Source of the DNA: an uncultured Bacillales bacterium
GTDB taxonomy: Bacteria > Bacillota_I > Bacilli_A > RF39 > UBA660
NCBI GenBank assembly: GCA_946624985.1
Contig: CAMOSQ010000004.1
Span: forward strand, 7,034-71,033
DNA: 64,000 bases
Direction: 5' to 3'
In this document: piece by piece, positions 20,797 to 54,654 of the stretch
Layout: every line of letters starts with the position of its first letter
Position numbering within the stretch: the stretch's first letter is position 1
Program-made: the position numbers and the translations under genes
Notes under the pieces: model-generated
Seen by the model: the letters and a program-made list of their open reading frames with translations, nothing else
What the model was told of the DNA's origin: nothing
Databases searched by the model: none

Positions 20797-20895
20797 ACTT
20801 GCCTCCTATTTATATAATTAACAAAAACAAAATATATATACATTAATTTGATGTAAATTGTTGATTTTTAAAAATATATATGTTAAAATGTATTT

Positions 20896-21017
20896 AGGAA
20901 GCATTGCTTCATAAAATAAAAAAGGGAATACTTAACTTTGCTGTGTTGAGTACTCACCTAGAAAAAGATTTTTTAAGGCAAAGTACTAATCTTACAAAGA
21001 TTGAGTACTTTTATTTT
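20896..21017 (+). ncRNA. candidate antitoxin sRNA of TA-like module 1
   Basis: Promoter TTGATT (20861-66), 17-nt spacer, TAAAAT (20884-89). 5' hairpin gaagc-att-gcttc. Terminator gtact-aatctt-aca-aagatt-g-agtac followed by TTTTATTTT (20983-21017). Convergent with the peptide gene and antisense to its 3' UTR. Confidence 0.45.
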
Positions 21018-21039
21018 GCCTTAAAACCAATAAAAACAA

Positions 21040-21108
21040 CTACCGATATATTATAAGCAAAACAATGATAACTAATAAAGATAAAATTAATAAATCTTTC
21101 TTATACAT
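21040..21108 (-). CDS. 22-aa hydrophobic peptide, candidate type I toxin: MYKKDLLILSLLVIIVLLIIYR
   Basis: Promoter TTGATT-17-TATAAT (21190..21162). SD GGAGGG lies 7 nt before the ATG and is paired in the hairpin CCUCC-GUAA-GGAGG (21130..21117). Below the ORF-track cut-off. Confidence 0.55.
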   Translation of the reverse strand: MYKKDLLILSLLVIIVLLIIYR

Positions 21109-21211
21109 ATTATCGCCCTCCTTACGGAGGTAAGTACCCAACAATTAAGTATTCCTATAATATTATAACTTGTAATTAACTTTAAATCAACATAAAATTA
21201 ACAAAATAATT

Positions 21212-50602: not shown

Positions 50603-51919
50603 CTATAAACTTTCTTCACCTTTATTTTTAAAATTAATAACAATTGGAGTACCTTCAAAATCAAAAGACTCACGAATCTTATTCTCCAAATATCTTTCAT
50701 AAGAAAAATGAACAAGTCCTTTACTATTAACCTGAATATCAAAAGTTGGAGGACAATTAGAAACCTGGGTAGAAAAATAAATCTTAAGCCTCTTTCCTTT
50801 ATAAGAAGGAGGTAAATTTAAACTATAAGCATCCATAATAACATCATTAATTAAACTAGTTTTAATTTCTTTCTTACTATTTTCATATACCTTTTTAATC
50901 TCAGGAATCAAAGTATGAATACGCTTATGAGTCTTAGCAGATAAAAATACAATTGGAGCATAAGACATAAACTGGAAATTATTTCTAATATTACGAGTAA
51001 ACTCTTTCATCTTTTCATCTTTATCCTCAATAACATCCCACTTATTAACAACAATTACAACTGCCTTACCAGCCTCAATTGCATAACCAGCAATATGTTT
51101 ATCATGTTCAATAATACCCTCTTCAGCATTAATAACAATAACACATACATCAGATCTATCAATTGCCTTTAAAGATCTAAGTAAACTATACTTCTCAACA
51201 CTCTCATATACCTTACCCTTTTTTCTCATACCAGCAGTATCAATTACAACAAACTCTTCACCATAATAAGTAAAAGGTGTGTCAATAGCGTCCCTTGTAG
51301 TACCAGCTACATCTGAAACAATAATTCTATCCTCATTTAATAATGCATTAGCCAAACTGCTCTTACCAACATTTGGTCTGCCAATCAAACAAAACTTAAT
51401 GCTAGACTTATACTCTTCCTCATAAACAGGAAAATCACTAACAACCATATCCATTAAATCACTAATACCAATATTTTGTTCACCACTAACAAAAGCGTAA
51501 TTATCAAAACCAAGTTCATAAAAAGAATATTGATTATCACTAGCTAACTTACTATCAACCTTATTAACAACAACAATAACCTTCTTATTACACTTACATA
51601 ACATATCCTTTACAGTATAATCATTGCTAGTTAAACCTTCCTTACCATCAACAACAAATAAAACAACATCAGCCTCATCTATAGCTAACTCTGCTTGAAC
51701 CTTAATCTCTTCATTAAAATCCATATTACTTAAATCAATACCACCAGTATCAATTAAATGAAAATTATAACCATCATAACTAACATTACCATAAATTCTA
51801 TCACGAGTAATACCTGGAGTATCCTCTATAATAGAAACCTTTTTACCAACTAATTTATTAAATAAAGTAGATTTACCTACATTAGGTCTACCAACTAAAG
51901 CAACAACTGGCTTCTTCAT
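50603..51919 (-). CDS. der: ribosome biogenesis GTPase Der (EngA)
   Basis: Two G domains (GRPNVGKST twice) and a KH-like C-terminus. Confidence 0.95.
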   Translation of the reverse strand: MKKPVVALVGRPNVGKSTLFNKLVGKKVSIIEDTPGITRDRIYGNVSYDGYNFHLIDTGGIDLSNMDFNEEIKVQAELAIDEADVVLFVVDGKEGLTSNDYTVKDMLCKCNKKVIVVVNKVDSKLASDNQYSFYELGFDNYAFVSGEQNIGISDLMDMVVSDFPVYEEEYKSSIKFCLIGRPNVGKSSLANALLNEDRIIVSDVAGTTRDAIDTPFTYYGEEFVVIDTAGMRKKGKVYESVEKYSLLRSLKAIDRSDVCVIVINAEEGIIEHDKHIAGYAIEAGKAVVIVVNKWDVIEDKDEKMKEFTRNIRNNFQFMSYAPIVFLSAKTHKRIHTLIPEIKKVYENSKKEIKTSLINDVIMDAYSLNLPPSYKGKRLKIYFSTQVSNCPPTFDIQVNSKGLVHFSYERYLENKIRESFDFEGTPIVINFKNKGEESL

Positions 51920-52124
51920 AATACCAACCGCCTTTCTTAACTCAAAATACCTGGACATATTATAACAAATTAATAAACATTAATCAAATAGTTTTTTTAC
52001 CTAAAAAGCACTTTTGTAACAAATGAAAAAGTAGATTTCTCTACTTCAAAGAAATTTATAGTCAAATTCCATTTTTTGATAATTAACATATTGATTATTT
52101 ATATAAAATATGTTATTATGTATG

Positions 52125-52243
52125 TAGTGAAGCAATACTTCATATAATAAAAAAGAGATATGCTTGATACTGGAATGTTAAGTGCTTATCTCCAAATGGT
52201 TATTTGTTGAAAAACACCAAACTCATCTGAGTCAGGTGTTTTT
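52125..52243 (+). ncRNA. candidate antitoxin sRNA of TA-like module 2
   Basis: Promoter TTGATT (52090-95), 17-nt spacer, TATTAT (52113-18). 5' hairpin ugaag-caaua-cuuca. Bidirectional terminator acacc...actca-tc-tgagt...ggtgt plus T6 (52213-52244). Confidence 0.45.
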
Positions 52244-52321
52244 TCTATCTTCTCTTGCGTCTTTTTGGAATTCCACGCACTACTAAAAGAATAAGTAGTA
52301 CTAGGACTAAATTGTAATCCA
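52244..52321 (-). CDS. 25-aa hydrophobic/polybasic peptide, candidate type I toxin: MDYNLVLVLLILLVVRGIPKRRKRR
   Basis: Promoter TTGACT-17-TATAAT, sharing ttaattacaagttataat with module 1. Upstream hairpin CCUCC-N10-GGAGG. SD GAAAGGA lies 7 nt before the ATG at 52321. An alternative overlapping 54-aa frame starts at 52349. Confidence 0.45.
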
Positions 52322-52463
52322 TAATAGATCCTTTCCAGTAATTTTTCCATATAGACCACCTCCTTACAATAACGGAGGTAAACACCTAACTATCTTGCAT
52401 ATCTCAACTACAATTATAACTTGTAATTAACCATTAAGTCAATATAAAAATAAATTTTTTGTA

Positions 52464-52493
52464 AACAAAAAGTAGAGTTTAAAAACTCTACTT
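52464..52493 (-). terminator. clpB terminator
   Basis: Hairpin gtagagt-ttaaaa-actctac plus a U-run on the minus strand. Confidence 0.6.
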
Positions 52494-54587
52494 TAATATT
52501 ATATTATTATCTAATACATCAATAGTAATAATGCTTCCAAATTTAACCTCACCTTCAATAATCTTTCTAGCAAGCAAATTCTCAACATTCTTACTAATAA
52601 ATCTCTTAATAGGTCTAGCTCCATACTGTTCATTATAAGCAGACTCAACAATAAACTCCTTAGCTTTATCAGTAATTAATAAAGAAATCTTTTTATCTCT
52701 TAATCTATACTCAATCTCTTTAACAATCTTACCAATAATATCATAAACAACAGTCTTAGAAAGTGAATTAAATATAACAATCTCATCAATACGATTTATA
52801 AACTCAGGTCTAAATGTAGACTTAAGCTCATCCATAACAAGATCCTTATTACCTTCCATAATATGTTCACTACCTAAATTAGAAGTCATAATAATAATTG
52901 TATTCTTAAAATCAACAGTTCTACCTTGAGAATCAGTAATACGACCATCATCTAATATTTGTAACAAAATATTAAATACATCTCTATGAGCTTTCTCAAT
53001 CTCATCAAATAAAACAATACTATAAGGATTACGTCTTACAGCCTCAGTTAATTGTCCACCCTCATCATATCCAACATATCCTGGAGGAGCACCAACTAAT
53101 CTAGAAACAGAAAACGCTTCCATATACTCACTCATATCAATTCTAACCATATGACGTTCATCATCAAATAATTCAGATGCCAAACTCTTAGCAACCTCAG
53201 TCTTACCAACACCAGTAGGACCTAAAAATATAAATGAACCAATTGGACGATTAGGATCCTTAATACCAGCACGAGCACGAATAATAGCTTCACTAACAAG
53301 TGATAAAGCCTCATCCTGACCCTTAACACGCTTCATCATATTACTCTTTAAATTAAGTAGCTTTTCCTTTTCTCCACCAACTAACTTAGAAACAGGAATA
53401 TTAGTCCATTTAGAAATAATTTCAGCAATTCTCTCATCATCAACAGTGTCACTTAAAATTTGAGACTCATCCACTTTACGTAAATTCTCTAAATCCTTCT
53501 CTAACTTAGGAATAGTACCATGGCGAAGTCTAGCAGCAGCCTCTAAATCATACTTATTCTCAGCCACATCTAAATCAAATTTAGCGCGACCTAATTCCTC
53601 TTTCTTACGATTAATTAAATCATTAATATTCTTCTCTTTTTCCCACTTCTGACGCAATTCATCTTCTTGTTTCTTAAGAATAGTAATTTGATCCTTAATC
53701 TCAAGAGTTCTTTTAACTGAAATATCATCTTGTTCCTTCTTAATAGCTTCTAACTCAATTTGTAATCTCATAATCTTACGAGTCAAAGTATCAAGTTCAA
53801 CAGGAACAGAATTCATTTGAACTTTAATAGTAGCGCATGCCTCATCAATCAAATCAATTGCCTTATCAGGTAAAAATCTATCAGTAATATATCTATCAGA
53901 TAAAGTAGCCGCAGCAACTAAAGCATTATCCTTTATATTAACTCCATGATATACTTCAAATCTTTCCTTAAGACCACGAAGAATAGTAATAGTATCAACT
54001 ACATTAGGTTCGCTAACAAGAACCTTTTGAAATCTACGTTCTAAGGCTCCATCCTTTTCAATATACTTACGATACTCATTCAAAGTAGTCGCACCAATAA
54101 CATGAATCTCACCACGAGCAAGCATTGGCTTTAACATATTACCAGCATCCATTGCACCCTCAGCACCTGCTCCAACTATCATATGAATCTCATCAATAAA
54201 CATGATAATCTCACCATCAGAATCTTTAACCTCTTTTAAAACTGCCTTAAGTCTTTCCTCAAATTCACCACGATACTTAGCACCAGCAACAAGCGCCCCC
54301 ATATCAAGTTCCCAAACTTTTTTATTCTTTAAAGTATCAGGAATATCACCTTTAATAATTCTTTGAGCAAGTCCCTCTACAATAGCAGTCTTACCAACAC
54401 CAGGCTCACCTATTAAAACAGGATTATTCTTAGTCTTACGAGATAAAATTCTAGTTAAACTACGAATTTCTTCATCCCTACCTATAACAGGATCAACCTT
54501 ACCATTATTAACAGAAGCCGTAATATCACGACCATACTTCTCTAAAACATTTTCCAAATTTTCTTGATAAGGATTTTGTTCATTCAT
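52488..54587 (-). CDS. clpB: ATP-dependent chaperone ClpB
   Basis: Two AAA+ modules (GEPGVGKTA and GPTGVGKTE) with a long middle coiled coil. ATG at 54587 follows AAGGAGG. Confidence 0.95.
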
Positions 54588-54654
54588 AATATACCTCCTT
54601 TTCATACTAAAAAAGTGGGTGTTTTTTCCACTCACTTATAATTATACTCATATT

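Follow-up and report, generated by a model that had tools for sequence, protein, structure and literature searches.

The 64,000-nucleotide (nt) window analyzed here, from contig CAMOSQ010000004.1 of an uncultured Bacillales bacterium, carries in the intergenic space between clpB and der a convergent sense/antisense gene pair, module 2 (window positions 52090-52445), which is probably a chromosomal type I toxin-antitoxin (TA)-like locus of an undescribed family. Its predicted components are a 25-amino-acid (aa) membrane peptide, an antisense RNA lying on the 3' side of the peptide's mRNA and a putative leader open reading frame (ORF). Three features expected of a type I TA locus are found in silico: a short hydrophobic ORF under coding constraint, an antisense gene with its own promoter and terminator, and sequestration of the Shine-Dalgarno (SD) sequence. 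The original prediction, made from the letters of this stretch alone, had described module 2 as a type I TA-like paralog of a second locus in the window, module 1, and this description is supported by the recurrence of the architecture in ∼25 further loci of other genomes, the metagenome-assembled genomes (MAGs) of gut and rumen bacteria labelled Erysipelotrichaceae or Bacilli.

Module 2 contains two overlapping ORFs on the minus strand. ORF1 (52186..52350, 54 codons, hydrophilic, MEKLLERIYYGLQF...), the candidate leader, starts at ATG1 (52350), stops at a TAA (52188-52186) and spans the entire ORF of the putative toxin in the -1 register. This toxin ORF (52245..52322, 25 aa, MDYNLVLVLLILLVVRGIPKRRKRR) starts at ATG2 (52322), in the +1 register relative to ATG1, and stops at a TAG (52247-52245). 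Both ORFs had been correctly recognized in the original prediction, each with its start one position off (52349 and 52321). It had also called for a comparison of frame conservation, with conservation of the 54-aa frame alone as the outcome that would speak against a toxin, and this comparison favors the 25-aa frame. In seven nucleotide haplotypes, the ratio of nonsynonymous to synonymous differences (pN/pS), from summed Nei-Gojobori counts over the 75-nt ORF overlap (27 variable columns), is 0.17 in the 25-aa frame, 1.64 in the 54-aa frame and 1.24 in the third. The variable columns divide 19/5/3 among the codon positions of the 25-aa frame, 19 of the 27 falling at third positions, which are the first positions of the 54-aa frame. 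Of the first 13 loci, 10 encode exactly the same 25-aa peptide, and these represent four of the six nucleotide haplotypes found among the 13. The most divergent ortholog, L033, has substitutions at 15 of the 75 nt, along a codon path of 12 synonymous and three nonsynonymous steps, with a net difference of one amino acid (Y3W). Double synonymous changes also occur in the toxin frame (Arg CGT to AGA, Leu CTT to TTA). The toxin stop position is fixed across orthologs, and 1-nt and 5-nt indels downstream of it shift the 54-aa frame, so that ORF1 ranges from 37 to 56 codons; the C-terminal third of ORF1 is translated terminator. Because conservation favors the 25-aa frame over the 54-aa frame, the peptide made is, as judged from the substitution pattern, a 25-aa transmembrane (TM) peptide under purifying selection. 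Strong constraint on one of two overlapping frames forces nonsynonymous change in the other, and the high ORF1 pN/pS therefore indicates absent protein constraint relative to the toxin, not absent translation.

Gene callers annotate the wrong frame at module 2. Public protein databases carry the 54-aa ORF (P0001, 5 contigs), and neither the 25-aa peptide nor the module-1 peptide is present in a 15-billion-protein collection. A related entry, P0041 (L034/L035), is an annotation artefact of another kind: the public 89-aa call reads through a TGA, apparently with genetic code 4, and the ORF1 variant of these loci has 38 codons under table 11.

Within the window the family has two copies only, as recovered by nhmmer. 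A hidden Markov model (HMM) built from 12 loci of foreign genomes finds exactly these two, module 2 at E = 3.8e-12 and module 1 at E = 2.8e-9, with the next best match at 0.028, which upholds the earlier argument for a genuine family and not a chance ORF. Module 1 (∼20880-21200, minus strand) lies downstream of rny and is a single-ORF paralog, whose peptide MYKKDLLILSLLVIIVLLIIYR (ORF 21040-21108) begins at the SD-proximal ATG and whose antisense RNA, predicted to run from ∼20895 to ∼21017, stops short of the peptide ORF. The sequence blocks reported earlier as shared by the modules are all recovered: an 18-nt promoter block, TTAATTACAAGTTATAAT, is exact in both (21162-21179 and 52413-52430), a 48-nt 3' block is 85% identical (52108-52155 versus 20878-20924), and the anti-SD/SD hairpin is common to both, as is the SD-to-ATG spacing. 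The 3' block, noted previously only by its letters (cttttttatt..atgaag), corresponds to the toxin U-run together with the antisense 5' hairpin and promoter.

Outside the window, the 3' block, scanned against a single genome of each GTDB species, yielded 19 loci, 12 of them true members in gut and rumen MAGs labelled Erysipelotrichaceae, Bacilli or Bacillales; the remaining loci are chance matches inside genes. Further members came from protein look-ups, the 54-aa ORF having a handful of homologs (L001-L011, L032-L035), and a metagenome scan with a 5' untranslated region (UTR) pattern added a single locus, L031. In each true member a sigma-70-type promoter and an anti-SD-bearing 5' UTR are followed by a GGAGG-type SD with N7-9 and an ATG, a hydrophobic ORF (22-31 aa in the GTDB-scan members, for example MTKRELHLVVIILVLIIIIILITNN and MKKRVYNIKLCRYICIILSLITLLVYVIKK; 20-31 aa family-wide), and then, in order, a hairpin, a second hairpin with a U-run, and the conserved block. 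Several genomes are multi-copy, and tandem arrays are also seen. The neighborhoods of the homologs vary: after an ABC transporter, before rpsB, beside a WYL gene, or between a radical-SAM gene and smc. Some loci are incomplete or rearranged. L029:2986-3088 consists of the 3' half alone, an antisense unit lacking any toxin ORF; L027:199-424 has intact RNA elements and a toxin ORF disrupted by a frameshift (MKRKIY*) in comparison with L028; and at L010:400-557 and L011:268-358 a module-2-type toxin gene is joined to the 3' unit of another subfamily, its own antisense promoter having been replaced.

On sequence comparison, modules 1 and 2 belong to a family not yet described, matching none of the curated families tested. 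At the Rfam gathering threshold the whole 64-kb window gives no hit (no tRNA, riboswitch or T-box), and permissive Rfam scans of both modules and five related loci give weak, inconsistent matches only. One of these, RF02618 SSRC34_2 (Streptococcus sRNA 34), was rejected: it scores 25.2 bits (E = 0.02-0.07), below its 48-bit gathering threshold, and is confined to 52133-52246 on the plus strand, absent from module 1 and the five related loci. SSRC34 has no known TA role (PMC3675131). Nine peptides searched against Pfam-A (E <= 10) and NCBIfam gave nothing meaningful, a scan of viral contigs with the 3' block gave zero hits, and blastn in its 'distant' setting found no match among plasmids and phages. 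Type I TA work on this lineage was not found in the literature, the supplementary candidate-toxin lists of Fozo et al. 2010 lying outside the search.

The toxin gene is predicted to be transcribed from a minus-strand promoter with a -35 TTGACT (52442-52437), a -10 TATAAT (52418-52413) and a start site at ∼52408-52405; the motifs are those originally named, with a spacer of 18 nt instead of 17. Promoter-like matches alone carry weak information (10 found versus 4.9 expected), terminator-like sites are above chance (3 found versus 0.0 expected), and in 19/19 family members the -35/-10 pair ends 5-8 nt ahead of the first base of a helix that joins the two ends of the mRNA. The predicted full-length transcript (∼260 nt, 52145..52406, its ends placed by these signals, with the family HMM covering 52395-52148) comprises a 5' UTR, ORF1 with the toxin ORF, the antisense-terminator hairpin, a 3' hairpin and a U-run. 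The 3' hairpin (52155..52193) is followed directly by the U-run (52154-52143), the probable toxin terminator. The hairpin nearer the toxin stop was described originally as a bidirectional terminator; the hairpin exists, and it chiefly serves the antisense RNA, since in most members it has a U-run on the antisense strand only and the toxin-strand U-run after it decays among module-2 orthologs. The toxin mRNA thus most likely continues past this first hairpin to the second hairpin and U-run near 52145 (52193-52143), as read from these sequence features. The toxin terminator at the second hairpin and the end pairing described below are anatomy additional to the original prediction.

RNAduplex applied to the 5' and 3' regions of 19 loci reveals that the two ends of the predicted mRNA pair with each other in all members. 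Its opening 11-13 nt join the 11-13 nt that immediately precede the U-run (helix A), and the following 15-20 nt of the 5' UTR, anti-SD included, form helix B with the 5' arm of the 3' hairpin, an arm that bears a pseudo-SD such as GGAG. In module 2 the 5' arm of helix A, GAGAUAUGCAAG (52394..52405), forms an inverted repeat with 52155-52166, the last bases before the U-run; the 5' arm of helix B, AUAGUUAGGUGUUUACCUCC (52374..52393), includes the anti-SD CCUCC (52378-52374) and has two alternative partners, the SD of ORF1 or 52177-52193, the latter containing the pseudo-SD GGAG. The two arms of the 3' hairpin are thus the 3' partners of helices A and B. The sequences of the paired ends differ by subfamily (GAGAUAUGC/GCAUAUCUC, GGAAUACUUAA/UUAAGUAUUCC, GGAUACGUUUG/CAAACGUAUCC, GGAACAUUCAAU/AUUGAAUGUUCC), and closure is very strong in module 1, which combines GGAAUACUUAA/UUAAGUAUUCC with a 15-bp helix B. 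Cognate ends pair with a mean duplex free energy of -34.4 kcal/mol, versus -15.0 +/- 4.2 for non-cognate ends. In an end-anchored alignment, 12/12 pairs of helix A vary on both sides, and 0/500 shuffles pair as well, and sliding the register makes the pairing collapse; the paired fraction of cells is 92.8%, a value inflated by the use of RNAduplex to set the register, which counts against the strength of this result. Within the module-2 lineage a compensatory G-C to A-U change is present in L009 and L031, with L007 as a one-sided intermediate. Folding of the full-length minus-strand RNA gives z = -6.6 for module 2, with its ends paired, and z = -8.9 for module 1.

Module 2 could in principle be a non-coding repeat, resembling a miniature inverted-repeat transposable element (MITE) with terminal inverted repeats, or else a leader or attenuator of der, its ORFs being accidental; the module is indeed repeated in varied contexts with long inverted repeats near its ends, and module 2 lies upstream of der on the same strand. 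We regard this as extremely improbable. The codon-position-specific substitution described above is the mark of coding constraint, the conserved unit reaches past the inverted repeats to both promoters, and the repeats begin at the predicted +1 and end at the U-run, which are RNA landmarks. Nor is the module a der leader, because the neighboring genes differ between loci.

The 5' UTR also contains a predicted local clamp on translation initiation. SD1, GGAGG (52359..52363, minus strand), lies 8 nt upstream of ATG1 and is sequestered in the predicted anti-SD hairpin CCUCC-N10-GGAGG (52378-52359), which the original prediction had named. The sequence AAGGAGGUGGUCUnnAUGG, which holds SD1, is without variation across all module-2 orthologs. 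The hairpin is predicted in both window modules and family-wide, with a probability of 0.07-0.14 that the SD is unpaired. In a partition-function model in which the 3' UTR is blocked, this probability falls from 0.14 to 0.08 for the family and from 0.11 to 0.00 for module 2.

On the plus strand of module 2 the antisense promoter, reported before with coordinates one position off and found again, consists of a -35 TTGATT (52091-52096), a 17-nt spacer and a -10 TATTAT (52114-52119) extended by a TG at 52111-52112 (TGtTATTAT), and the RNA, put originally at ∼120 nt, is predicted at ∼123 nt (52126..52248, both ends placed by motif; fold z = -3.9). It comprises a 5' hairpin, GAAGCAAUACUUC (52129-52141), an A-rich linker, hairpin 2 and the terminator (52210..52249), whose hairpin (52210-52243) and U-run abut or overlap the toxin stop codon. 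The -10/5'-hairpin motif could be placed in 14 members. In all 14 the promoter consists of a TTGnnn -35 and, after a 17-nt spacer that varies freely in sequence, an extended -10 of the form TGn-TAxxAT, and the terminator U-run is conserved on the antisense strand. The RNA is 108-121 nt long in 11 of these 14, the other three lengths being regex artefacts. Its order is likewise shared: a sequence-conserved 5' hairpin (GAAG...CUUC), an A-rich linker complementary to the toxin U-run, hairpin 2 and the terminator. Hairpin 2 is the opposite strand of the toxin 3' hairpin, and seven of its pairs covary. The antisense RNA is fully complementary to the toxin 3' UTR over ∼100 nt and reaches the ORF at its stop codon at most; pairing in trans with the toxin 5' region, in the style of Fst/SprA1, is not consistently above shuffles (z 0 to -2.6).

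A separate observation concerns the first ∼30 nt of the antisense RNA (the 5' hairpin GAAGCAWWRCUUC plus AUAUAAUAAAAAAG; 52126-52155 and 20895-20924, both plus strand), which are conserved in sequence family-wide while the rest of the RNA covaries freely. This block includes a near-palindrome that overlaps the antisense +1 and might protect the RNA as a hairpin, serve as an RNase or protein site, or act as an operator in the DNA.

These elements suggest how the locus might work. The closed 5'-3' form of the mRNA would hide its 5' end and keep it stable and untranslated, with the SD GGAGG locked by the anti-SD. Pairing of the antisense RNA with the 3' UTR would displace the 5' UTR and undo the closure; the freed anti-SD, left with the SD as its sole partner, would then clamp the SD, as SR4 does on bsrG. 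The same pairing would create a long duplex for RNase III and expose the 5' end. In module 2, ribosomes entering at SD1/ATG1 would cross the toxin start and so might control initiation at its own SD (SD2) and ATG2, by activation or by occlusion.

Several points weigh against reading module 2 as a TA locus that operates in this way. Module 2 is known from sequence alone, and every transcript end is predicted. The haplotypes behind the frame comparison are few and phylogenetically related, and the hydrophobic core of the peptide is short, at ∼13-16 residues. The shift of the SD upon antisense binding is modest, with three members going the opposite way, and in the predictions SD1 stays paired whether the RNA is nascent, full-length, 3'-truncated or antisense-bound. 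A conserved gene for a small membrane protein, with a cis-antisense regulator that tunes its level in a benign role, would account equally well for the purifying selection, both promoters and the RNA structure; the toxin role of the peptide is itself read from its sequence, and the modules sit among core genes and not on phages or plasmids. Such a benign role is nevertheless distinctly unlikely. It does not sit well with multi-copy and tandem arrays whose peptides diverge fast between copies, with orphan antisense halves (L029) and frameshifted toxin copies (L027), with the extreme, multilayer silencing provided by the SD clamp and 5'-3' closure, or with scattered, non-syntenic insertion sites. 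Copy number and divergence, decayed copies, multilayer silencing and scattered sites are hallmarks of type I TA systems and not of small housekeeping proteins (PMC8594479, PMC6563280), and a type I TA-like locus remains the probable interpretation.

The second question is what ORF1 does. Moderate evidence, drawn from sequence conservation, suggests that ribosomes translate it and that the act of translation, not the product, would matter, as for mok. This view derives from an invariant ATG1, SD1 and offset, from the repetition of the layout in a paralog, and from a stop-avoiding choice of codons. All 17 module-2-type loci keep SD1, ATG1 and the +1 offset, which measures 25, 28 or 31 nt, and the sole indel separating ATG1 and ATG2 is in-frame. 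SD2, GAAAGGA (52329..52335, minus strand), lies 6 nt upstream of ATG2; the reading GAAAGG(A/C) holds for all module-2 orthologs and also for L009:684-925 (plus strand; L009 copy 3), a diverged paralog. This paralog, which stands in a tandem array with one module-1-like and one module-2-like copy, has the two-ORF layout with unrelated sequences: GGAGG-N8-ATG1 leads to a hydrophilic ORF of 37 aa (MKKIIERNTTNG...), and GAAAGGA-N9-ATG2, in the +1 register, leads to the hydrophobic, 20-aa MELVIVFTLILFCIILEIKD.

Codon choice in the toxin ORF is consistent with this view. In the genes of the window, TAT makes up 98% of Tyr codons (TAC 2%), CCT 70% of Pro and CGT 32% of Arg (CGC 2%), and the toxin ORF has TAC, CCA and CGC at precisely those codons whose T-ending synonym, with AA after it, would put a TAA into ORF1. 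Under random synonymous recoding of the toxin with genomic codon usage, the probability that ORF1 stays open is 0.001 (0.14 for the L009 paralog), a statistic that depends on the null, as the toxin ORF is generally rich in rare codons and a uniform-codon null gives ∼0.3 by our own estimate; this dependence is a point against a translated leader. For the third frame the expected probability of being open is 0.009, and it is observed closed. The alternative frame of module 1, which has a single ORF, is closed immediately (TAT-AAG). A local hairpin that would hide SD2/ATG2 agreed with a few substitutions and was dropped after folding, which gave z near 0 and structures that differ between loci; the weakness and inconsistency of this hairpin, which a coupling model would want, also tell against coupling of the two ORFs.

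Only tentatively do we carry this further, to the possibility that the module-2 lineage is an independently arisen Gram-positive counterpart of hok/mok, in which an ancestral single-ORF toxin was split by a frameshift and SD1/ATG1 now drive a leader that must be translated and that gates SD2/ATG2 under 5'-3' closure and a 3' antisense RNA. The same frameshift could have left a mere fossil: a single-ORF toxin lost its frame, its TM segment was rescued by an internal ATG and SD, and ATG1 is functionless or a harmless decoy. In all other members the peptide starts at the SD-proximal ATG, and their N-terminus, M-x-K-(K/R)-(D/E)-L, resembles MEKLLER; moreover, the ORF1 protein is unconstrained and its tail frameshifted, and a robust SD2-sequestering hairpin was not found. 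A fossil is unlikely, however, given that ATG1, SD1 and the +1 register are invariant in 17/17 loci and in L009 copy 3, that the only indel between the ATGs is in-frame, and that ORF1 is never interrupted within the toxin ORF (chance 0.001-0.14), the third frame being full of stops.

A programmed +1 frameshift from ORF1 near GAA AGG, yielding a ∼34-aa fusion with a charged N-terminus, is a very improbable third account of the same region. In the window a 46-aa GTG ORF keeps the +1 frame open ahead of ATG2, GAA-AGG-A is conserved, with AGG a minor Arg codon (15%), and the fusion would regain the family-typical N-terminus. No recognizable slippery or shifty site was found there, however, and in L009 copy 3 the +1 frame has TGA and TAG just upstream of GAAAGG, which leaves a window of 1-2 codons for a shift. 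The position of GAAAGGA at SD distance (6-9 nt) from a conserved ATG is a simpler reason for its conservation, and a frameshift would leave the downstream openness of ORF1 unexplained.

Module 2 is flanked by clpB (52488-54635) and der (50603-51919), both on the minus strand. The clpB terminator (52469-52494), a perfect 11-bp bidirectional hairpin, lies directly upstream of the -35 of module 2 and probably blocks clpB read-through into the toxin gene. On the der side, the window can be compared with L001, apparently from the same species, in which the module-der spacer is ∼94 nt shorter (window 51960-52090 versus L001:336-509); the two sequences part immediately after ...AATATGTTAATT. The extra segment of the window holds a minus-strand terminator-like hairpin (∼52041-52016, GTAGAGAAATCTAC + TTTTTC) just upstream of the der promoter (TTGATT 51987 ... 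TATAAT 51959). The G+C content of the window is 27%, and codon usage in eight long window genes is extreme, with ATT accounting for 82% of Ile codons and C-ending codons for ∼1-2%.

Type I TA loci are mostly invisible to annotation, and the known Gram-positive families come from a few cultivated genera. The present work adds a TA-like family from uncultured gut and rumen Bacilli (Erysipelotrichaceae-like MAGs), whose unusually clear, covariation-rich RNA anatomy offers a direct basis for a covariance model to annotate these genomes. The family joins a Gram-positive antisense layout with two traits so far tied to Gram-negative hok/ldr-type systems: an mRNA whose ends pair with each other and, in a single lineage, a putative leader ORF that overlaps the toxin. 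The coexistence of paralogs with one ORF and with two makes it possible to test how leader ORFs arose and what they do. If the module-2 lineage is a counterpart of hok/mok, overlapping leader ORFs would be a convergent way to tame type I toxins, with evolutionary intermediates, the single-ORF paralogs, preserved in the same genome as module 2.

Among characterized systems, bsrG/SR4 and txpA/RatA of Bacillus subtilis share the genomic layout of module 2: the genes are convergent and their 3' ends overlap by ∼100-120 nt. The antisense overlap of module 2 spares the ORF except for its stop codon, unlike that of bsrG/SR4 and txpA/RatA. The type I toxins of B. subtilis are 38-59 aa long, whereas the family described here has peptides of 20-31 aa, and family-wide 5'-3' pairing and a leader ORF are not known for bsrG/SR4 or txpA/RatA (T1TAdb overview, PMC8594479). 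Rfam, the permissive scans and the protein families reveal no similarity to TxpA/RatA, BsrG/SR4, BsrE/SR5 or YonT/SR6. Bound at the 3' end of bsrG, SR4 lengthens the distant helix that sequesters the SD and also favors decay (PMC3834814), and a similar long-range SD clamp is seen in modelling of module 2. The T1TAdb overview (PMC8594479) assigns leader ORFs to the Gram-negative Hok and Ldr families.

Fst/RNAII (par, pAD1) and SprA1/SprA1as are likewise convergent at the terminator, with a ∼30-aa peptide, an SD in a 5' stem-loop and an antisense RNA off the ORF (PMC8594479, PMC7472228), as is the family here. Fst and SprA1 interact with their antisense RNAs outside the overlap, through 5' direct repeats or the SD region, whereas the present family has no consistent complementarity of this kind. 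It also has no Fst-type motif, no Pfam or NCBIfam hit to these families and none in Rfam at E <= 10. The Clostridioides difficile modules (CD2517.1-RCd8 and others) resemble module 2 in having toxins with a hydrophobic N-terminus and a basic tail, a convergent overlap and many copies (PMC6563280). Their toxins are 30-56 aa long with Lys-rich tails, their loci are associated with prophages or CRISPR arrays, homology to module 2 is not detectable, and the present family, unlike the C. difficile loci, is absent from the phage, viral-contig and plasmid collections searched.

The closest likenesses in RNA logic lie in Gram-negative bacteria. The hok/sok/mok system of plasmid R1 combines a small membrane toxin, 5'-3' closure of the mRNA (tac/fbi), an anti-SD clamp and an overlapping leader, and module 2 displays all four in silico. 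The mok ORF overlaps the entire hok ORF in another frame and acts through being translated and not through its product (PMC9841398). It is established that 3' trimming activates hok. Sok is a 5' antisense RNA that targets the region where mok translation begins, whereas the antisense RNA of module 2 is convergent and lies over the 3' UTR; mok needs translation only as far as the hok start, whereas ORF1 of module 2 is open beyond the toxin stop; and Hok has 52 aa versus 25 aa in module 2, with sequence similarity absent (Pfam). Module 2 falls outside the Hok/Sok family on two counts, having no Pfam-A hit at E <= 10 and an antisense RNA on the 3' side. In aapA/IsoA of Helicobacter pylori the mRNA is locked by a long-distance 5'-3' interaction and SD-sequestering structures (PMC6733600, PMC9841398), as predicted here; the host is epsilonproteobacterial, IsoA covers the 5' part and the ORF, and the sequence is unrelated to module 2. 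By the tests run, module 2 is a member of none of these systems, and as read from its sequence it combines the Gram-positive layout of overlapping 3' ends with an RNA logic closest to that of hok/sok/mok and aapA/IsoA.

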